Assembly: GCA_963664115.2 (NCBI GenBank)
Contig: CAXWPJ010000002.1
Span: 128,001 to 192,000 of the forward strand
Length of the DNA: 64,000 bases
DNA from: Terriglobia bacterium
GTDB lineage: Bacteria > Acidobacteriota > Terriglobia > 20CM-2-55-15
Reading direction: 5' to 3'
Position 1 is the first letter of the stretch. Each line of letters begins with the position of its first letter. Both the position numbers and the translations under genes were made by a program. The notes below the pieces were generated by a model. It was given only the letters and a program-made list of their open reading frames with translations. It was not told where the DNA came from and did no database searches. Of the stretch, positions 7,336 through 18,416 are shown piece after piece.

Positions 7336-8058
7336 ATGGTTAGTGTTTCCGTATTGGGCGCTTTCGCGGCCGGCATCGTTTCGTTTCTTTCACCGTGTGT
7401 CCTCCCTCTGGTTCCCGGCTACATCTCCATCGTCTCCGGCGTTTCGCTGGAACAGTTGCAGGCGGACCGCAGTGCATCGATGACAAAGACGGTGGTGGCA
7501 AACTCTGTTTTCTTTATCCTTGGCTTCTCAACGACGTTCATCGCACTGGGTGCCTCAGCGACGTTCCTGGGCCAGGTCATCATGGGACAGATGGCGATCC
7601 TCTATCGAGTGGCGGGCATTGTCATCATCGTTTTCGGCCTCCACCTCATAGGCATCTTCAAGATCCCTTTCCTCTATCAGGATAAGCGCTTCCACAACGT
7701 CACCAAACCACGCGGCATGTTCGGCGCCTATGTTTTGGGCCTGGCTTTTGCATTTGGCTGGACGCCCTGCATCGGCCCGATTCTGGCAGGCATCCTGACC
7801 TTTGCCAGCACTAGGGAAACGGTTTATCAGGGCATATTTCTTTTGGCGGTCTATTCGGCCGGCCTGGGTTTGCCTTTTCTTCTGACCAGCCTGGGATTGA
7901 ATAAGTTCCTGTCTTTTTATGGCCGATTCAAGCATCATTTCCACACCGTCGAAATCGTCAGCGGCCTCCTTGTTGTTACGGTGGGTGTCCTGATTCTCAC
8001 CAACAACTTCACACGACTCTCGGGCTACCTCGGTTTTCTGAACCGCTTCGCGCTGTAA
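7336..8058 (+). CDS. ccdA: Cytochrome c biogenesis thiol-disulfide transporter CcdA
   Basis: SFLSPCVLPLVPGY and FGWTPCIGPIL motifs. Confidence 0.92.
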   Translation: MVSVSVLGAFAAGIVSFLSPCVLPLVPGYISIVSGVSLEQLQADRSASMTKTVVANSVFFILGFSTTFIALGASATFLGQVIMGQMAILYRVAGIVIIVFGLHLIGIFKIPFLYQDKRFHNVTKPRGMFGAYVLGLAFAFGWTPCIGPILAGILTFASTRETVYQGIFLLAVYSAGLGLPFLLTSLGLNKFLSFYGRFKHHFHTVEIVSGLLVVTVGVLILTNNFTRLSGYLGFLNRFAL

Positions 8059-8139
8059 TCGACACGCACTCTCACCTTCGGCCCTACCCCACCTCTTGTG
8101 ATTCTGGTTGTGATTCTGGTGTGTTAGAATCACGCGCCC

Positions 8140-8289
8140 ATGGACGAAATCCTGGAACGTCTCCTATCCAGCGCCGAAGAAACATTTGGTGCCGAACGCG
8201 TTCTAGCACTCAAGCCATTCCTCGAACAGGCGGCTTCGGACCTTTACGTCCTTTCGCTCTACCCGCTGGACTCCACCGATGACGCCTGA
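8140..8289 (+). CDS. Small 49-aa acidic protein coupled to amidase
   Basis: MDEILERLLSSAEETFGAERVLALKPFLEQAASDLYVLSLYPLDSTDDA; stop overlaps the amidase start; TAGAAT -10 box 9 nt upstream. Confidence 0.55.
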   Translation: MDEILERLLSSAEETFGAERVLALKPFLEQAASDLYVLSLYPLDSTDDA

Positions 8290-9595
8290 CGACTTCTCCC
8301 TGAAAGCGGTATCGGAACGCATACGCGGTGGCCAATCCTCGTCGGGCCAAACCGTGTCTCTTTTCCTGGACCGGATTGCCCGGGCAGAGAGCAGGATACA
8401 GGCATGGACGACCGTGGACTCCGATGGCGCGTTGGGGCAAGCCGAAGTTTTGGACAGAGAGGCCGCCGAGGGCCGCTATCGGGGCCCACTCCACGGTGTG
8501 CCGGTCGGTATCAAGGACATCTTCAGCACTCGCGGACTCCGAACGACGATGGGTTCGCCTCTGTTTAAAAACAATGTGCCCGATCACGATGCAGCCGTCG
8601 TCGAGCGGCTGAGGGAAGCAGGTGCGATTATCCTCGGAAAAACCGCCACAACCGAGTTCGCGGCCCTCGACCCGGGACCCACGCGAAATCCATGGAATCC
8701 GGAGCACACACCGGGGGGGTCGAGCAGCGGCTCCGCAGCGGCCGTAGCGGCCGGAATGTGCCCGGGAGCCACCGGGTCACAAACCGCAGGCTCGATCGGC
8801 CGCCCTGCTGCGTTTTGCGGTATCGTCGGGCTCATGCCCACCGCATCGCGCATATCGCGGGAAGGCGTCTTCCCCAACTCATGGTCTCTCGACCACGTCG
8901 GCGCGTTCGGACGCAGCGTGGACGACGTCGCTATGATGACGTCGGCCATGTCCTCCCGCCCCCTGAGGCATGACCCTGCCATAGCCGCAACTGAGATCCG
9001 GGTCGGCGTCGTCCGCGAATTCTTTCACGAAAACACCGATACGGAAGCATGGGAGCTTCATGAACAACTCATTGACCGGTTGAAGGGGGCTGGTCCCAAG
9101 GTTGAAGAATTGTCACTGCCGGATACGTTTCCTAATGCGATCGCGGCCTTGAGAACGATCATGCGGGTCGAACTCGCCGCCGCCCATGCCGAATTACATG
9201 CCCAACACCGAGCAGACTATGGCCCTATTCTTCGTGGCCTGGTGGAAAGCGGGCTTCTTATTTCTGCGACCCAGTATCTTCGCGCCCGACGATTGCGGCG
9301 CATCTATCAAAAGGAAATGGGGCAGCTGTTCACCCGTTGTGACGTAATCCTTTCACCGGGCGCCCGGGGACCCGCCCCTTCGGGCCTGGGCAGTACCGGG
9401 GATCCAACGATCTCCGCGCCCTGGACACTGGCTGATTTTCCGACACTTTCCTTGCCGATAGCACTTGTCAAGGACGATCTGCCAGTCGGCATTCAACTCA
9501 GCGCGCAGCGGCTGGATGAAGGTCGGCTCCTCAAAATTGGAAGATGGTTCGAACAGTGGGTGGGGTTTGCGGAACTCCCCGAAATCTACCATTGA
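8279..9595 (+). CDS. Amidase signature family enzyme
   Basis: GVPVGIKD, HTPGGSSSGSAAAVA, GSQTAGSIGRPA. Confidence 0.92.
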   Translation: MTPDDFSLKAVSERIRGGQSSSGQTVSLFLDRIARAESRIQAWTTVDSDGALGQAEVLDREAAEGRYRGPLHGVPVGIKDIFSTRGLRTTMGSPLFKNNVPDHDAAVVERLREAGAIILGKTATTEFAALDPGPTRNPWNPEHTPGGSSSGSAAAVAAGMCPGATGSQTAGSIGRPAAFCGIVGLMPTASRISREGVFPNSWSLDHVGAFGRSVDDVAMMTSAMSSRPLRHDPAIAATEIRVGVVREFFHENTDTEAWELHEQLIDRLKGAGPKVEELSLPDTFPNAIAALRTIMRVELAAAHAELHAQHRADYGPILRGLVESGLLISATQYLRARRLRRIYQKEMGQLFTRCDVILSPGARGPAPSGLGSTGDPTISAPWTLADFPTLSLPIALVKDDLPVGIQLSAQRLDEGRLLKIGRWFEQWVGFAELPEIYH

Positions 9596-9629
9596 AAACG
9601 AGCACCTGAACGTCACTATAAAGAACACT

Positions 9630-10496
9630 ATGGTTCGCGCATCTACAGCCCTGGCACTTCTGAAAGTCCTCATCACCGCAGCCTGGGCGGACTCCGAACT
9701 ATCACAATCCGAATTGAACTACATAAAGGAACTGGCCCGGCGTTTCGACCTGGACGACTCGGACTGGTTCGAACTCCAGCCTTACATTGAAGATCCGGTA
9801 TCCGAGGAGGAGCAGATTGCTGTAGTCCAGGATCTGTTATCGAGAATTGGATCGGCGTCGGAGCGGGAAACGGTAATCCGGCATATCGAAGGCGTCATCA
9901 GCGCCGATGACCGCGTAACCACCGAAGAAAAGGAACTCTTACGCCGCTACGAAGACATTCTGAAAGAGCCTTCATCCCTCGACTTGATGATGAGCCGCGT
10001 CAAGTACCTGTTCCAGTCGCCGCCACCCCAATCGAGAGTGGACGTTGACGAGTTCCTCAAAAACAAGATCCTTTTCAAGTTGCGCCGGAAGGTGGGCGAT
10101 GAGCAGATTACCCCCCAGATGCACCGACTGGCTCTGCTGGGCGGTTTGATGGGCATCGTTGCACACGCCGACCACGACATAAACGAACGCGAGTTACAGG
10201 AAATTCGACGGCGATTGTCCGAGCGCGGCAACTTCGACGAGAGCGCGCTCGATTTACTCCTGACAATTATTCACGAAGAAACCGTTCGCGGACTGGATCG
10301 CTACCGGATGATCAACGAGTATACCGGAAACGCGACACTGGAAGAGCGCACTGAGATCCTGGATCTTCTGTTTGCCGTCGCTGCCGCCGACGGTGGCCTG
10401 ACCCACGCCGAACTGGAAGAATTGCGGGCCATTTCTTCGGCCCTTCACCTGAGCCACAAGCAGTACATCAACGCCAAGATTCGCATAAAAGAATAA
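9630..10496 (+). CDS. Tandem TerB-like domain protein
   Basis: Repeated AAWAD..SE, VISAD..E, IVAHAD..E, AVAAADG..E motifs. Confidence 0.75.
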   Translation: MVRASTALALLKVLITAAWADSELSQSELNYIKELARRFDLDDSDWFELQPYIEDPVSEEEQIAVVQDLLSRIGSASERETVIRHIEGVISADDRVTTEEKELLRRYEDILKEPSSLDLMMSRVKYLFQSPPPQSRVDVDEFLKNKILFKLRRKVGDEQITPQMHRLALLGGLMGIVAHADHDINERELQEIRRRLSERGNFDESALDLLLTIIHEETVRGLDRYRMINEYTGNATLEERTEILDLLFAVAAADGGLTHAELEELRAISSALHLSHKQYINAKIRIKE

Positions 10497-10539
10497 CGTC
10501 ATTCCGGACTACCCGGACAATCATTCGCTTACCTCCGGA

Positions 10540-11181
10540 TCACACGATAACTCTCGGCTCGTGCATGGAGAACAGCCCTGCGACGGACCGAAAGGTCCCC
10601 AGGGCGGCCCGCTTGAACTGTGCGGGTTTCATCCGAATGAACTCATCGCAGTCGATACGCCGCCCAATGACGAGGTGACCGTCTTTTCGGCGGGTCACTT
10701 CTTTGCCCAGGCCGGCAAACTTGGTTTCCGACCATCCATTCAAGTCTGCCTCCGGTCGCTCGTCGTGCTCGTCCTTGAACCACGCCAATTTTTTCCCGGA
10801 TCCCAACATCAAGCATATCCCCCGGATGTCTCGTCGCCACTTCAGGGCCCATTCAGCTTTGTCGTAGTATTCCGGGCCAAGTTCAAAAAGCAATCGAACG
10901 CAGTTACGCGAGACCGCTATCTTGAAGTGGACGTCCTTCTTGTAACCCCGTTTGTCCGCGCCTAAAGCAGCCCATGTGTCATCTGGAGGATTGACCGTGC
11001 GGCGCATGTGTTTCGCCACATGCACGTGAAGGGGCCGGTCGACCAGGCTTGCTACACCCGGAGCGAGGGCCGCTCCGATATCAGAGAGTTTGGGTTGGAT
11101 CTCGCTGCGAAGCGCTGCCATCCGTTCTTCGAAATCGGAGATATCGAATACTTTGAAATCGTTTGACGTAAACAGGTTCAT
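10540..11181 (-). CDS. YktB/DUF1054 family protein
   Basis: HVAKHMRRTVNPPDDTWAA...RGYKK..HF. Confidence 0.85.
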   Translation of the reverse strand: MNLFTSNDFKVFDISDFEERMAALRSEIQPKLSDIGAALAPGVASLVDRPLHVHVAKHMRRTVNPPDDTWAALGADKRGYKKDVHFKIAVSRNCVRLLFELGPEYYDKAEWALKWRRDIRGICLMLGSGKKLAWFKDEHDERPEADLNGWSETKFAGLGKEVTRRKDGHLVIGRRIDCDEFIRMKPAQFKRAALGTFRSVAGLFSMHEPRVIV

Positions 11182-11326
11182 GTTCCCTCTTAAGATTTTC
11201 GCTGCCCCGCCTATTCTAAAGCATTGAATCGGACCCGACCCCACCATGTATCCCTGGAAGTCCGTCTTTCCGGGTCTGTCAGAACAATCCGGGACACCGG
11301 CGCTCAGATTCAGTACACTTTTACAG

Positions 11327-13159
11327 ATGTTCCGCGACCGCCGATTCCGACACGATTGCCTGGCACGGCCTTGCCTGGGATTTCTCATTGCGCTGCTGCT
11401 TCTCTCTCCATCTGCCCTTTCAGCGCAGGCGGTCTACGCCGCGAACCAGATCCCGGCCAATGGAGTCCAGATCGAGTGTCGAATTTCCATTGAAGACCCC
11501 CTCGCCCATCTCTATGCAGTAGAAATAGATATTCGGGGTATTCAAGCCGATGACCTCCAACTCGCAATGCCCGCCTGGGCACCGGGTGACCGTCGGATTC
11601 GGGACTTCGCCCGAAACGTCCAGAACTTTCAAGTTCGGTCCCGATCTGGAAATCGTAGCCTGAACTGGGAAAAGACAGACAAGCAAACCTGGGAAATTCT
11701 TAAACGGCCCGACGACGATGTGATCATCACCTACGATGTCTATTCAACGGGACTGACCGCGGAAATGGCAGACATCTCCGGCCCCGCGACATATATGTAC
11801 GTCGTTGGACACAAGCACGTTCCCGTCGCCCTCCGTTACGAGAAACCGCGCCCCTGGGATATTCACACGGGGCTTGAACGTCGCGGCGGCGCCTACCGGG
11901 CGCCCGATTACGATGTCTTCATCGACGCACCGGCCTTTGTCGGAGAGGCCCGAGTCCATGAATTCACGTCTGAGGATGTTCCCTATCGCCTCGTTTTCAG
12001 CGATCCGACTGTGGAGTTCAACGAAGAGCAACTCCTCACGGACATACAAGACATCGTTGAGGCGACCGTGCAACTATTCGGTTCCCCACCGCATAAGAGT
12101 TATACGTTTTTGTTCAAAATCATCCCAACAGCCGGAAGCAGCGGCCTCGAACATCTCAATTCGACGCGCATCACCGTCGGAAGAAACGATTTCGCCAGTG
12201 GGCTCCGGTACGAACGTTTCCTGTTTGTCGTCGCGCACGAATTTGTTCATGTTTGGAACGGAAAGCGTATTCGGCCCTCCTCCGAAAGCACGTTCGACTA
12301 CACGCGTGAAGCACCCACGCGTCTTCTCTGGCTAACGGAGGGCTTGACCAGCTACTACGCACGACTGCTGCTCGCACGTACGCGAATACTGCCGATCCAG
12401 GCCTACCAGGTCCAGCTCGCGCAGGAAATCAATCGGCTCCAGCATGCGCCCGGACGGTTTCTCATGAGCCTGGAGGAAGCCAGCTGGGAAGCCTGGGCCC
12501 CGAGCGACAACAGCGACAACAACAGCATTTCCTACTACACCAAAGGCGAGATCACGGGCTTTCTCCTCGACATCGAAATCCGGGCACGGACCGGAAGCGA
12601 AAAGAGTCTCGACGATGTCATGCGCTATCTCATGGAAACCTATGCCAACCAGGGTGTGGGCGTTCCCGAAGATGGCTTCCTGATGGCCTTGAATACGGTG
12701 GTAGGATCTGATTTTGAGCAGTTCTATGGGTCTGTGATCCAAAGCCGCACGGAGCTCGATTACACAAGCTACGCAGCTCAAGCGGGCTTTCGTGTAAGAG
12801 CCGATCGACAGCTCCCGACTCTATATATGGGAATTCAGTTTGTCGAAGCCGAAGGTGGACTGGCGCGTATTTCGAGAGTGATTCCCGATAGTCCGGCCTC
12901 GGCGGCCGGCCTGGATACCGGGGACATCCTGCTGGCCTTCGCTGACCGCCGCGTTACGTTCAGCAATTTCCAGGGTGAGTTCCGGCGACGGAAACTCGGA
13001 GAGACTATAGACCTGACCATTACGCGTGGAGACCGTATCCTTGTGTTGGAGTTCACACCCAGCGAAATCCAGGAAGAGACCTGGAGCATCGTAGACGAAC
13101 CTAATGCAACCGAGGAACAGATGGAGATCCGGAATCGCTGGATCGGAGAACTCAATTAA
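11327..13159 (+). CDS. M61 glycyl aminopeptidase with C-terminal PDZ domain
   Basis: GLEHLNS, AHEFVHVWN.KRIRP, WLTEGLTSYY, SYYTKG; PDZ SPASAAGLDTGD; start uncertain. Confidence 0.9.
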   Translation: MFRDRRFRHDCLARPCLGFLIALLLLSPSALSAQAVYAANQIPANGVQIECRISIEDPLAHLYAVEIDIRGIQADDLQLAMPAWAPGDRRIRDFARNVQNFQVRSRSGNRSLNWEKTDKQTWEILKRPDDDVIITYDVYSTGLTAEMADISGPATYMYVVGHKHVPVALRYEKPRPWDIHTGLERRGGAYRAPDYDVFIDAPAFVGEARVHEFTSEDVPYRLVFSDPTVEFNEEQLLTDIQDIVEATVQLFGSPPHKSYTFLFKIIPTAGSSGLEHLNSTRITVGRNDFASGLRYERFLFVVAHEFVHVWNGKRIRPSSESTFDYTREAPTRLLWLTEGLTSYYARLLLARTRILPIQAYQVQLAQEINRLQHAPGRFLMSLEEASWEAWAPSDNSDNNSISYYTKGEITGFLLDIEIRARTGSEKSLDDVMRYLMETYANQGVGVPEDGFLMALNTVVGSDFEQFYGSVIQSRTELDYTSYAAQAGFRVRADRQLPTLYMGIQFVEAEGGLARISRVIPDSPASAAGLDTGDILLAFADRRVTFSNFQGEFRRRKLGETIDLTITRGDRILVLEFTPSEIQEETWSIVDEPNATEEQMEIRNRWIGELN

Positions 13160-13169
13160 CCGGGGGCAA

Positions 13170-13400
13170 ATGATGGAAATCGAACTCATATACTGTCAGT
13201 CCTGAAACTATGAGCCTCAGGCGGTCAGCCTGATCGAGAAGCTCATCACGGAGTTCAAATCCAAAATCAAACGCTTTGTATTGGTGCCGTCCGACGGGGG
13301 GCGCTTCGAAGTGAGTGTGAACGGATCGCTCATATACTCGAAACTTGAAACCGGACGTTTTCCCGAGTACGACGAGATCCACCAGAAACTCCCAACCTAA
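13170..13400 (+). CDS. SelW/SelT/Rdx-family selenoprotein (CxxU)
   Basis: MMEIELIYCQS[TGA]NYEPQAVSL...LVPSDGGRFEVSVNGSLIYSKLETGRFPEYDEI; Rdx similarity continues after the TGA at 13203; SECIS-like hairpin. Confidence 0.88.
13217..13233 (+). promoter_or_regulatory. Putative bacterial SECIS element
   Basis: TCAGGC-GGTCA-GCCTGA stem-loop beginning 11 nt after the in-frame TGA. Confidence 0.75.
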
Positions 13401-13404
13401 GAAG

Positions 13405-13430
13405 GAAGGGCGGCCCGGAAGCCGCCCTTC
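13405..13430. terminator. Hairpin between convergent genes
   Basis: GAAGGGCGGC-ccggaa-GCCGCCCTTC. Confidence 0.7.
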
Positions 13431-13481
13431 AAACATTCATGTACAACTAGATATTTTATTTCTTATCCTTAAGTCCTGTCA

Positions 13482-16400
13482 CTAGTTGTTTCCATTTCCG
13501 CGGCCCGGATTGTCGTTTCCACCACCACCCTGGCCACTGTTCCCACCACCTTGGTTGTCCTTGTCTTGGCCTGGCGGCGTCTTGTCGTCACCCTTATCAG
13601 CGGGCGGATCCTCTTCTCCTCCCTGACCGCCGCCTCCTCGGCGGAATTGCGGTGGCAACTTGTCTTCGCCCTCATTCCGGCCCGGCGGCGTCTTGTCATC
13701 ATCCCCATCCTGGCCTGGCGGTGTCCGGTCGTCATCCCCATCCTGGCCTGGCGGTCTCCGGTCGTCGTTTTTACCCGGCCCACCCTTCCTGCCCGCGACC
13801 GACAAAATCTCTACGTTGGAACGGAGACTCCCGTTTTCAACGTGAACTCCGATATCCAAGGCTTCAGGAGGAGTCTCCGTCAACAGAACGACCAATGTCT
13901 TGTCGTCCACAAACTCCGGTATAAACACCCGGCTCTCGACTCTCCCTTCAAACGTTGCCGACATGACGACGATCGATTCCGCCGTAAACCCCTCTCCACG
14001 CACAGTAACGGAAATGTTTTCGCTTCCGGCCCCGATTGTCTTGGGATTCAGGGATCGAATGAGGGGAACCGCACCTTCGATCGTCAAGGACAAGGTTTCT
14101 TCCGACAGGCCTCCTCCCCCGGGATTACTTACCTGAACCGACTTCTGACCCCGAGCACTCAATATTTCGCGATCAAGGATTCCTACCAGTTCTTCCGTCG
14201 AATTAAAGAGGGTTTTGATCGCCATTCCATCAACAAGGATCTCCGAATTGCCTACAAAGCCCCCGCCCGCTACGGCGATAATCACGCGGCCTTTCGTGGG
14301 TGACAGCGTGGACGGGGTCAGTGAATCCAGAATGGGAGTCGTCGCGCGTATGACGAATGGGAGCCTGGCTTCATCGGATCCACCCCCGGGAGATGGACTG
14401 ACAACCCCGATTTGAAACGATCCAGCCCGTTTTAGAATGCCCCGATTAACGCGACCGATCAGCTCAGAATTGCTCACGAATTCTGTCGGAATACGCGTTC
14501 CGTCCACAGTGACAGCCGTGCGGCTCTCGAAGTTGGAACCCGTCACCGTCAGCGATATAGAAATGGAGTTAACAACTGCTTCCGTTGGAGAAAATCCATC
14601 GATCGCAGGCGGAACACCGGTGACTTGAATCGCAAACGGTGCGGAACCACCGCCCGGAGCGGGATTGGAAATCAAACCATTCAAACGCCCGGAACGTTCG
14701 ATGGCAGCCGGATCCAGTTTCAAGCTGATCGTATCGGCAGCCACCGCCACATCCATGGCGCCGTCAAGACGAACGCTTGTCAGCTCGGGTAGAAAGCCGC
14801 TTCCAGTTATCGTGATTTCGACCGGGCTGTCCGTACCCGCAGACACCTCGGACGGCGAGACGGCATCGACACGAGGTGGAGAGTGCCTCCGTTCAACGAC
14901 GGTAAAGATCAGTGATCCGGATACCTGGGATCCCGGGTTTTCGACAAAGACCGTCTTTTCTCCTGCAATTACGGCACTGGCAGGAACCCGGACAGTGAGC
15001 GTCTGTTGGGACAGGGCACCGGGAACCAAGAGCAGTCCATCGAAAGACACGACGGATGTCCGGTTGAAGTTATTACCTCTCAGCGTCAATACAACGTCCT
15101 TGTCCGCGATCGATTCGTCAGGAGACATACTGATCAGGACCGGGTCGGGACTCTCGACTTCGATATTCGTCACTTCCGGATCGGGCACGGAGCTGCCACC
15201 GCCCGGGCCGGGATTGGTGACGCCAATGTTGAAATTGATCGGCGCGAGTTGAGGGCTAATGAAAGCATTGCCATCGCCCTCGGTGATGGCCTGAGTCGAT
15301 GACCCAACTGCAAGCAGCGAATCGAGCAGGGACCCGAAAACAACAGCCGTCAACTCAGTTGAACTGATGAACGTCGTCGGTAAGGTTGCTCCGTTCAGGT
15401 TGACAACCGATGTGGGGAGGAACCCGGTTCCCCGAATCGTGAGCGTAACGCTGGTCACACCCAAGGGAAATGTTTTCGGCTCGATTTCTGTGATTTGGGG
15501 CTCGGGATTCGGAAGTCGGACGAAGGTGGCATCATTGCTTCCGAAGTTGGCGACAACCGCCAACTGCGCCCCGGGATCCACATCGACGCCAAACGCTGTA
15601 CTTCCGACAGGGACCTCGGCCAAAATCTGCAATTGCCCCAGGTTGATCACCGTCACTGTCGTGATCGCGCCGAGGCTTCCCTGCCCCCGAACAAACCCAC
15701 TGTTGCTGACGACCGCGTTGTTGGAGATCGGATCCACCGCCACTGCAGTCGGACCGTCCCCGACTTCCAGCGTGGCGATCACTGTCAACGACTCAAGGTC
15801 GATTACGGTGACCGTTCCGCCGTTGGCATTCGCGACCACAGCAACGTTCGTCGTCGGGTTGATTGCCACTGCACGTGGAAATTCTCCCGTTGGAACCTGC
15901 CCCACAATGGTTCCCTGCGCCAGATCGATGACTGAGACCTGCATTCCCGCACGTTGGGTGACGAGGGCACGCCCCGTCACCGGATTGACCGCGATACCTC
16001 CGGGCCGATTCTGAACGGGGATCGTGCCGGTAACCGCAAAGGTATTCAGATCGATCACGGCCACGCTGTCGTCCTCGCCGTTGACGACCAGAGCCTGGGC
16101 CTCACCGGGCACGATGGCAACACCGGCCGGAAATCTCCCGACTGCGACCGTCGCTACGACACTCCGGGATCCGATGTCGATAATGGACACATCGTTACTG
16201 CCAACGTTAGCTACGACCGCGAGGCCCAAATCGGGATCGACGTCGAGTTCTGTCGGACTGCGACCCACTTTCACCTGTCCCACGACCTGAAGTTCGTCGA
16301 CGTCAATGAAGAAGACACTGTCCGCCGATTCGCTGGCGACCAAAGCCAATCGTGACAGGGGATCGATCGCAACACCGGCGGGAAATCCTCCGACCCCCAC

Positions 16401-18416
16401 GCGCCCCACGATCAAGGGATTGTCCAGCGCTGGATTCACCTGGAAGTCCAACGAAGACGAGGTTCCTCCGCCTGGAGGTCCGGTAACGACACTGATCGCA
16501 AGCGTTGCCGTTTCGAATAAAGCTGCGGCCGGAAGCACCGCCTGGACCTCGACCGCGCTAACGAAAGTCGTCTGAACAGGTACCCCGTCGAGTTGGACAA
16601 CCGAAGTCGGGCTGAAGTTGGCCCCACCCACGCGCAGATTCAAGGTACTGCTGCCGGCGAAAGTCGCCGACGGCGTGACGAATAATAACGTCGGCGCCGC
16701 GGCTGCAACGACGCCGCCGCTTTCGAAACGGACTCCATCAACGTTCTCTAAAGCCAACTCTATCGTTTGTGTATCCGGGGAAAACTGAGCACCCGGAGCA
16801 CTCGGCCTGAGTGTGTAGGTTCCAGCCGGAAGTTGAGAAAACACGAATGCCCCAAAGCTATCGGTCGTTTCGCTCGTGTTCACCGGGCCTTCCAACGACA
16901 CAGTCACCCCGGAGACGCCCAGACCTGCCTGGGTCACGCTTCCCGTTATCGCCGAGGTCGTCTGCGCAGGCGGAACGAATGCGCCACCGGGAATCTGAGG
17001 GTTTACGTTGGCTAAGGAAAGTCCGTTCGTAGATCCCATCAATGCTGAAGCAATGAGCGCTTGGCTTGATGTGAGGTATGCCCAGACACGAGATTCGGCG
17101 GAGCTGGCCGGCACAAAGGAACTGAAAAGCCCTGATTCCGTTTGTCGAGGAGGAATCGTAATTGTTTCCCTGCCAACAGTGGTTCCATCGTCCCGAAGGA
17201 TAAACAGATCGACAACTGCTTCCTCGGTTCCCACATTGTTCAGGGTCAGACCCGTGAAGAACAGGTCGCTGTCGGCAAAGTGCGCGAAGACCAAATCTCG
17301 CGAGGCAGACACCACGTCAGTGCCCGACACCAGAGCAAACGATGAAGCCGTGAGGTTCCCTAAGCCGATGAACGTCGCCACCTGGCCCAAATCCGACTCA
17401 ACTTCTATCCAGCCCAGACGCAGCTCACCGGAGGGAAAACCGAACAATTCCTCGGCACTCAATCGGAACGATTCGTTGGGTTTGAGCGGTATACGGGCAG
17501 GGTTCGTTTCGCCACTCCATAGGGCTCCACCGGTCTGGTAGGCCGTCAACGTCACTTCCTGACCAATGCCTCCGGCATTCACAATACCGACGTGTGATAT
17601 CCACCCCGCGCCCGTAATAAATTGGGAAAGAATCGCCGTCGTCGAATTCTCTAAGGATTGGCCCGCCAGCATCACCGATTCCCTGCGCAGGGCGGGCGCT
17701 TCCGGAACCTGAAAATCCGCCACTAACTCTAAACCGGCAAGGGGACGATCAGACGTCACTCGCACATGCGATGCTTCGCTGAGGTCGATCGATTCGAACA
17801 CGTCCGTCAGTGTCTGACGGAGAAGCCCACGTGAGGGCACGACGAGTGATGCGGACCCAAGAGTTGATCCATCGCGAGCAAACAAAGTCGCCGACGCGTT
17901 GGCAAGCTCGGGGCTCGGATTTACAAGGGATAATTCCGTCGCCCCGATTCCGTCTTCAGAAACGAGCGGGAACAGAAATTCCGTTAGCGGTTCCGCGACC
18001 GCGGCGCCATCGAGGTCGGTCAGCGCGGAGTTACCATTGAGGAAGAAACCGGTCAATCCGGAAGTCGCACTTGCAGCCTCGACCCAGCCATTGAAGGGCG
18101 TATCGGTACCAAATATTTCCGGATAGATCCGCGTATACTGACCTCCCGCCGGAATTGCAATCGATACAGGATTCTCGACTCCGGACTCCGTTACCAATGA
18201 ACCGTCGGGATTCAGTGCCGTAAAAGTTACTGTGACCGATGAAGGTGTAGGATTGCTGATCGCGAGACCGGTAAAGACCCCGTCAGAAGTGATCACGCGT
18301 GGAAAATGAAGGACGCTCTGGGCCCGTGCTTCGCCTTCCACAGCCAGGGAAAGGCCACACACGGCCAAGCTCAGCAAGCAATATTTGAGTGGGTGCAACC
18401 TGCGAACGAAAGACAT
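13482..18416 (-). CDS. Large exported multidomain protein (carboxypeptidase-regulatory-like, IPT/TIG repeats, YVTN beta-propeller, PPGQD tail)
   Basis: Signal peptide; VANVGSNDVSIID/VGRFPAGVA YVTN repeats; multiple GxNF...NPxPGGGxS IPT units. Confidence 0.85.
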   Translation of the reverse strand: MSFVRRLHPLKYCLLSLAVCGLSLAVEGEARAQSVLHFPRVITSDGVFTGLAISNPTPSSVTVTFTALNPDGSLVTESGVENPVSIAIPAGGQYTRIYPEIFGTDTPFNGWVEAASATSGLTGFFLNGNSALTDLDGAAVAEPLTEFLFPLVSEDGIGATELSLVNPSPELANASATLFARDGSTLGSASLVVPSRGLLRQTLTDVFESIDLSEASHVRVTSDRPLAGLELVADFQVPEAPALRRESVMLAGQSLENSTTAILSQFITGAGWISHVGIVNAGGIGQEVTLTAYQTGGALWSGETNPARIPLKPNESFRLSAEELFGFPSGELRLGWIEVESDLGQVATFIGLGNLTASSFALVSGTDVVSASRDLVFAHFADSDLFFTGLTLNNVGTEEAVVDLFILRDDGTTVGRETITIPPRQTESGLFSSFVPASSAESRVWAYLTSSQALIASALMGSTNGLSLANVNPQIPGGAFVPPAQTTSAITGSVTQAGLGVSGVTVSLEGPVNTSETTDSFGAFVFSQLPAGTYTLRPSAPGAQFSPDTQTIELALENVDGVRFESGGVVAAAAPTLLFVTPSATFAGSSTLNLRVGGANFSPTSVVQLDGVPVQTTFVSAVEVQAVLPAAALFETATLAISVVTGPPGGGTSSSLDFQVNPALDNPLIVGRVGVGGFPAGVAIDPLSRLALVASESADSVFFIDVDELQVVGQVKVGRSPTELDVDPDLGLAVVANVGSNDVSIIDIGSRSVVATVAVGRFPAGVAIVPGEAQALVVNGEDDSVAVIDLNTFAVTGTIPVQNRPGGIAVNPVTGRALVTQRAGMQVSVIDLAQGTIVGQVPTGEFPRAVAINPTTNVAVVANANGGTVTVIDLESLTVIATLEVGDGPTAVAVDPISNNAVVSNSGFVRGQGSLGAITTVTVINLGQLQILAEVPVGSTAFGVDVDPGAQLAVVANFGSNDATFVRLPNPEPQITEIEPKTFPLGVTSVTLTIRGTGFLPTSVVNLNGATLPTTFISSTELTAVVFGSLLDSLLAVGSSTQAITEGDGNAFISPQLAPINFNIGVTNPGPGGGSSVPDPEVTNIEVESPDPVLISMSPDESIADKDVVLTLRGNNFNRTSVVSFDGLLLVPGALSQQTLTVRVPASAVIAGEKTVFVENPGSQVSGSLIFTVVERRHSPPRVDAVSPSEVSAGTDSPVEITITGSGFLPELTSVRLDGAMDVAVAADTISLKLDPAAIERSGRLNGLISNPAPGGGSAPFAIQVTGVPPAIDGFSPTEAVVNSISISLTVTGSNFESRTAVTVDGTRIPTEFVSNSELIGRVNRGILKRAGSFQIGVVSPSPGGGSDEARLPFVIRATTPILDSLTPSTLSPTKGRVIIAVAGGGFVGNSEILVDGMAIKTLFNSTEELVGILDREILSARGQKSVQVSNPGGGGLSEETLSLTIEGAVPLIRSLNPKTIGAGSENISVTVRGEGFTAESIVVMSATFEGRVESRVFIPEFVDDKTLVVLLTETPPEALDIGVHVENGSLRSNVEILSVAGRKGGPGKNDDRRPPGQDGDDDRTPPGQDGDDDKTPPGRNEGEDKLPPQFRRGGGGQGGEEDPPADKGDDKTPPGQDKDNQGGGNSGQGGGGNDNPGRGNGNN
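13557..13770 (-). repeat. Coding repeats DD(K/R)xPPGQD
   Basis: Repeated GGCCTGGCGG...GTCGTC units encoding PPGQ/PPGR. Confidence 0.75.

Follow-up and report, generated by a model that had tools for sequence, protein, structure and literature searches.

SelW-like proteins with a CxxU motif are described as a high-confidence prokaryotic selenoprotein family (PMC13188914), and bacterial SelW-like selenoproteins had already been counted in 2006 (PMC1794560). For the SelW homolog of Campylobacter jejuni, translation past the UGA codon was demonstrated by Ribo-seq and proteomics (PMC11955535). As for the signal that directs Sec insertion, a bacterial SECIS model calls for a loop of 3-9 nt with a G in its first two positions, a stem of 4-16 bp, a distance of 16-37 nt between the UGA and the loop, and an energy of -7.5 kcal/mol or lower (PMC13188914). 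The E. coli element is reported to need a bulged U on the 5' side of its upper stem (PMC8659212).

Here, we describe a SelW-like (Rdx family) selenoprotein gene located on the + strand at positions 13170-13400 of a 64,000-nucleotide stretch of Terriglobia DNA (hereafter, the window). We consider it highly probable that the TGA codon of this SelW-like gene is read as Sec by means of a hairpin predicted 11 bases downstream, and that the product is a likely cytoplasmic CxxU thiol-disulfide oxidoreductase, probably not acting on the protease encoded next to it. The window protein resembles the bacterial SelW-like (SELENOW-like) family in its CxxU motif, its single Sec residue and its size (~75-80 aa), and it passes both family cut-offs; it differs in being a Terriglobia-type member, in being encoded behind an M61 peptidase gene in one clade, and in having a predicted SECIS element shifted by 5 nt relative to most homologs. 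C. jejuni SelW (CJnc60) is likewise encoded by a small, unannotated selW ORF with an in-frame UGA; however, it comes from another phylum and another gene context, and the window gene is known from sequence alone. The gene is a further member of the long-known SelW/Rdx family, ordinary except for the predicted position of its SECIS element.

The SelW-like gene and its in-frame TGA

The open frame begins with two consecutive ATG codons (13170 and 13173) and continues as E-I-E-L-I-Y-C-Q-S up to the TGA at 13203-13205, with YCQS encoded at 13191-13202 and the complete C-Q-S-U redox motif at 13194-13205 (+ strand). It is followed by 64 codons, which include GGRFEV and IYSKLETGRFP, and is closed by TAA at 13398-13400. 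The original prediction had pointed to YCQS-TGA, the 64 in-frame codons and these Rdx hallmarks, and the window sequence bears out all of them. When the TGA was read as Sec, the protein scored 74.7 bits with Pfam family PF10262 (Rdx; cut-off 22.6) and 65.9 bits with TIGR02174 (CXXU_selWTH; cut-off 34.2), in agreement with the proposed Rdx/SelW-like CxxU identity, whereas a score of 85.8 bits with NCBIfam NF041051 (SelTWH_Campy), just under the cut-off of 88, left it outside that equivalog. This was the only Rdx match in the whole genome, and the closest named records were Terriglobia (Acidobacteriota) assemblies.

Eight solved SelW-related sequences matched the protein, among them the Cys-type Rdx proteins 2p0g, 2fa8, 3dex, 2obk, 2oka and 2ojl and mouse SelW 2npb (E values from 1e-10 to 2e-4). 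Alignment to Rdx homologs, proposed as a check along with the gene itself, placed the TGA opposite a Cys of solved CxxC homologs in all three alignments examined. The solved bacterial Rdx structures are of the CxxC type, whereas the window protein is of the CxxU type. A single-sequence structure model (pLDDT 68) showed the expected strand-helix order, a predicted feature shared with the solved Cys-type Rdx proteins and mouse SelW, and in a fold search with this model SelW-related chains occupied the top 12 ranks, all with E values of 0.006 or weaker and none at 0.001.

Translation from 13170 would yield a protein of 76 aa, and from 13173, one of 75 aa with Sec at position 11. The latter is the likelier start because the homologs compared begin where the second ATG lies, in most of them after a purine-rich site. 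In the window, a Shine-Dalgarno-like GGGGG is located at 13162-13166 (+ strand), 6 nt 5' of the second ATG; its assignment is based on the purine-rich sites before the equivalent ATG of relatives and on the 3' end of the 16S rRNA of this genome. The gap to the stop codon of the M61 gene (13157-13159) is therefore 10-13 nt, and the spacing of 10 nt originally given for the Rdx start holds for the first ATG but not for the likelier second one.

The Rdx ORF was also expected to escape standard gene callers. It was indeed absent from the plain ORF list, and an exact look-up of the truncated window product gave no match. Among the protein matches listed, 116 of 120 database homologs were pieces of 50-66 aa devoid of the active site, so that what the Rdx gene itself offers is a correction of annotation. 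The remaining 4 of these 120 were full-length, with W at the TGA position.

Sequence comparisons make it very likely that the in-frame TGA encodes Sec. The organism had been expected to possess Sec machinery, and the search of its genome (97% complete) detected selC (71.6 bits), selA (522.6 bits), selB (383.6 bits) and selD (359.8 bits), all above cut-off; the selD gene has an in-frame TGA of its own. When 41 genomes were searched, 20 gave Rdx matches, and the TGA lay in an open frame in 22 of the 23 matches, the other one being a degraded extra copy. The TGA was kept in all 80 GTDB loci retained. In a survey of the class, 54 of 401 genomes matched Rdx; 16 class loci with no stop at this position were fetched, of which 15 had TGC and one gave no local match, and a SECIS-type hairpin was found in none of these 15 distant TGC homologs. 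selA was above cut-off in 34 of 40 relatives, and one relative (G015, 81% complete) had the TGA gene and no selA match.

The TGA could instead be a true stop codon, a sequencing error, a pseudogene lesion, or a codon for Trp or Gly throughout the genome. The four database homologs with W at this site point in that direction, and they are most simply explained as gene calls made under a table in which TGA encodes Trp. Against a genome-wide reassignment, TGA is a normal stop codon here, since it ends 400 of the 788 open frames of at least 500 codons. A TGC or TGT in sequencing reads had been named as the observation that would speak against Sec; in public run X4, the one run in which the codon could be checked, three contigs span the TGA, and over the whole stretch they show just one difference, C>T (run X23 gave no match). 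Finally, the same in-frame TGA is present across several phyla, and this conservation refutes the non-Sec readings, which we find hardly credible.

Two overlapping hairpins downstream of the TGA

The hairpin TCAGGC-GGTCA-GCCTGA noted in the original prediction was located at 13217-13233 (+ strand) and begins 11 nt after the TGA. This hairpin (hairpin A) pairs +12 to +17 with +23 to +28 and presents a GGUCA loop at +18 to +22. It agrees with all four constraints of the bacterial SECIS consensus (a 5-nt loop at +18, 6 bp, -9.4 kcal/mol). In the fold of 13206-13270 (z -2.33), a lower stem was predicted beneath it (13210-13215 with 13243-13248, + strand), which is not kept in all relatives. The element had been called canonical-looking; hairpin A does fit the consensus, but it is the likely SECIS element in this genus only, and the family-wide one is a hairpin 5 nt downstream. 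The proposed likeness to the E. coli fdhF element also stands in part. Both have an 11-nt spacer and G-G-U-C in the loop, whereas the fdhF loop starts one position further out (+19 compared to +18), and the bulge of the fdhF fold, including a bulged U of the fdhF type, is absent from the unbroken 6-bp stem of hairpin A. Unlike the fdhF element, hairpin A overlaps a second, mutually exclusive hairpin.

By itself, hairpin A is modest evidence because, among 34,359 TGA candidates in the genome, 219 have a hairpin as strong (798 have a consensus hairpin, and 9 of the 219 are CxxU candidates, window included). When the same 15 residues were recoded synonymously 2000 times, only 6 of the recoded versions did as well as hairpin A. 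Across the homologs, a consensus hairpin was found in 58 of 87, compared to 5.9 expected after synonymous recoding.

The second hairpin (hairpin B, 13222-13236, + strand) is the predicted family-wide SECIS element. In the family, it pairs +17 to +22 with +26 to +31 around a loop, GUY, that begins at +23; in the window, the loop (+23 to +25) is GCC and the element is weakened. Folding of the 87 distinct homologs (102 sequences before duplicates were merged, which left 87 at 48 nt and 84 at 39 nt; degraded copy L044 left out) showed hairpin B to be more stable in 73 and hairpin A in 14. Over the alignment, 92.5% of the cells of hairpin B were paired and four of its six pairs had changed on both sides, including one that joins two synonymous positions (C-G in 57, G-C in 15 and U-A in 5 sequences). 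For hairpin A, 84.7% of cells were paired, a score above all shuffles that arises in part because the encoded residues force its pairs.

A different picture emerged in the genus of the window. All five genomes favor hairpin A (predicted pair probability 0.87 in the window and 0.98-1.00 in the four others) and have lost the GU of the hairpin B loop; hairpin B has mismatches in two of the five, and in the window its six pairs are all still possible at a predicted probability of 0.12. Across all sequences, with the reservation that kin are not independent, the outer position of hairpin A was paired in 10 of the 11 sequences that lack GU at +23/+24, compared to 18 of the 76 others, and the synonymous pair of hairpin B was broken in 4 of these 11 compared to 2 of 76. 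Mutual exclusion of GU loss (both sites lost in 0 of 87) was dropped as evidence, as less than one case is expected by chance.

In a protein tree (93 rows, 79 columns, unrooted and with many open forks; 9 GTDB loci that duplicate loci of the relatives' genomes were left out), the A/B label requires five changes, at least four of which are forced by well-supported branches, and the window genus is a single, supported A clade surrounded by B relatives. Folding and comparison thus suggest that hairpin A is likely the SECIS element in the window genus, and hairpin B in most relatives.

It is also conceivable that the gene encodes a selenoprotein in which hairpin B is still the working element of the window, with hairpin A a by-product of the residues and of high G+C codon choice. 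Hairpin B is the better-supported structure in the family, keeps all six pairs possible in the window, and has a loop whose first base, G, is at +23, the spacing most often seen in the other candidates of this genome; in addition, most pairs of hairpin A are forced by the Gln-Ala-Val-Ser-Leu codons. However, its predicted probability is at most 0.12 in all five genomes of the genus, two of which carry the mismatches, and its GCC loop lacks the G-G or G-U that all 12 of the other hairpins in this genome have. The outer pair of hairpin A, on the other hand, is restored where GU at +23/+24 has been lost. We regard continued use of hairpin B in the window as unlikely and favor hairpin A.

As in known bacterial recoding, SelB with Sec-tRNA would bind an apical loop bearing G/U and bring Sec to the UGA. 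Folding and comparison predict that the window genus reads the loop of hairpin A, with GU at +19/+20, and that the ancestral-looking hairpin B (GU at +23/+24) decayed by the synonymous changes AGT to AGC and TTG to CTG, which would also have strengthened hairpin A. We lean, if only slightly, toward a more general reading, in which the position of a bacterial SECIS element inside the coding sequence can change: SelW-like genes would have a pair of overlapping hairpins, and a small number of changes, most of them synonymous, would shift the SelB-binding GU loop from +23 to +19 with the protein unchanged, at least four such switches (in this Terriglobia genus, a planctomycete, Acidimicrobiia and Chloroflexi) having passed through intermediates that fold both ways. 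Our literature search, which lay mostly outside subscription journals and was partly off-topic, found no report of shifting bacterial SECIS hairpins.

The M61 peptidase gene and its relationship to Rdx

Upstream of the Rdx gene, an M61 glycyl-aminopeptidase with a C-terminal PDZ domain is encoded at 11246-13159 (+ strand; Pfam PF17899, PF05299 and PF13180 above cut-off). Its HEFVH zinc motif is intact (residues 331-335), and its signal-peptide-like N-terminus, with a hydrophobic core at residues 43-53, was seen in the window and in all 10 relatives examined, as judged by eye and hydropathy. By the same means, the N-terminus of Rdx is not hydrophobic and lacks a signal peptide. The M61 open frames contain 0-5 Cys each.

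The M61 gene directly precedes Rdx in 20 of the 21 family genomes with a close ortholog, which represent 7 genera; in the exception (G013), the two genes are ~4 kb apart. This short-gap adjacency persists although M61 identity drops to ~50% and downstream genes vary, and it could indicate that Rdx and M61-PDZ work together as a module in which redox sensing is tied to proteolytic quality control, as the original prediction had proposed. In addition, genus g3 lacks both genes in the genomes searched, and one contig in an RNA library (which may be DNA) covers, in a relative, both the stop codon of M61 and the start of Rdx. However, the pairing is confined to one clade of one family. M61 was not found near Rdx in any of 69 GTDB loci outside the family (3 kb flanks; 61 of them with at least 1.9 kb upstream) or in any of 12 loci that belong to other families of the class (flanks of 1.5 kb), and recurrence in independent lineages was thus seen in 0 of 81 outside loci. 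Conversely, 12 other M61 loci, some of them cut by contig ends, show no Rdx, and an M61 ortholog with 51% identity (G042) has no Rdx within 1.5 kb downstream. Second Rdx copies in G013 and G021 are not accompanied by M61, nor is the first copy of G013 any closer than 4 kb. In 8 of 11 family loci, the block also retains a divergent DUF1054 gene, which is what plain synteny would produce, and the single origin means that the 20 cases are not independent.

With this distribution, the signal peptide and few Cys residues of the peptidase, and an Rdx without a signal peptide, the proposed redox-proteolysis link is not sustained, and we judge a functional module to be quite improbable. Inherited gene order is likely the better reading of the M61 adjacency because the pairing has one origin and the likely compartments differ. 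Our search, which left most subscription journals outside, found no literature that joins M61 aminopeptidases and selenoproteins.

The M61 gene may thus be an inherited neighbor, plausibly co-transcribed with Rdx given the gap of 10-13 nt. The RNA-library contig is 196 nt long and cannot show a single transcript, and two public RNA runs contained only short pieces of relatives, as contigs, from which RNA ends, strand and level are unreadable. No promoter-like site was found on the + strand in a scan of 11000-13700. A terminator shared by the two genes had also been suggested. A G+C-rich 10-bp hairpin is present at 13405-13430, between the convergent Rdx and TIG-domain genes (-21.5 kcal/mol, z -4.5, with 0 of 200 shuffles as good), and is a possible terminator of either strand; on the + strand it has no U tract, a terminator scan of 11000-13700 gave 0 sites, and only some relatives have a similar hairpin, so that the shared terminator was not confirmed.

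Several other features of the neighborhood were observed. The upstream region (7336-11388) contains genes for a CcdA/DsbD transmembrane-domain protein, an amidase and a double TerB-domain protein as well as the divergent DUF1054 gene. Downstream, the - strand (13482-18416) encodes a 1644-aa protein in which a signal-peptide-like start is combined with TIG domains, a YNCE-like propeller and C-terminal G/D/P-rich repeats; among the 23 loci compared, only 3 have it at this position. The ~4 kb between M61 and Rdx in G013 contain transposase-like ORFs (by eye), ORFs of this kind also adjoin the second Rdx copies of G013 and G021, and a degraded copy is present in G001, which suggests that the small Rdx gene moves with insertion elements.

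Other selenoprotein candidates and SelW function

The genome appears to be selenoprotein-rich, with at least 15 candidates including Rdx. This count is a minimum rather than a full inventory, as it is based on 20 read-through candidates picked by hand from the rest of the genome; 14 of these matched selenoprotein-type families across the TGA, several of them below curated cut-offs. The 14 candidates were SelD, three deiodinase-like and three AhpC/TSA-like proteins, DUF3179, OsmC, a PrdB/GrdB-like protein, two ArsC-like proteins, a rhodanese and a MerB-like protein. The other 6 were rejected, five because they had no family match and one because it matched only downstream of the TGA. Of the 14, 12 had a hairpin whose loop carries G-G or G-U and begins between +18 and +27; one of these was the rhodanese, with a loop at +18 as in hairpin A. 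The other two had no consensus hairpin.

Some candidates had unusual architectures: one deiodinase-like protein is fused to EF-hand repeats and another has a long N-terminal extension, and in one candidate an AhpC domain is fused to a DsbD N-terminal-like domain. An AhpC/TSA-like UxxC candidate (C2:298780-299202) ends early after the motif, has no consensus hairpin and may be frameshifted or decaying. Sec-containing formate dehydrogenase was not detected, as none of the six molybdopterin oxidoreductase matches genome-wide had a stop inside the matched part. In addition, an identical sequence around a TGA occurs at ~19 places in the genome (e.g., C5:61568) and is probably a multicopy insertion element.

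The motif and fold suggest that the Rdx protein is likely a cytoplasmic CxxU thiol-disulfide oxidoreductase. Its Sec would attack an oxidized thiol or a disulfide in a cytoplasmic substrate protein, and the Cys located three residues before the Sec would resolve the intermediate; attack by Sec and resolution by Cys is the chemistry generally known for thioredoxin-like selenoproteins.

In 19 of the 80 GTDB loci, all of them among the 69 outside the family, selD lies on the same strand and starts ~200-400 nt downstream of the TGA, and selD was found downstream of a SelW-like gene in one further case, a Terriglobia genome from another family. The SelW-selD loci are mostly planctomycete records (e.g., L078:2964-3983), which points to few origins of this adjacency; most of these selD genes have an in-frame TGA of their own. 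The arrangement hints at a role near selenium supply or selenoprotein upkeep, or at mere clustering of selenoprotein genes. A SelW-like gene before selD in many planctomycete genomes is thus a lead on the function of bacterial SelW.

The predicted shift of the SECIS element within this family would be an example of a recoding signal that moves under protein-coding constraint. If the shift is true, the paired variants that occur naturally would allow a direct test of how much change in spacing SelB proteins other than that of E. coli tolerate.
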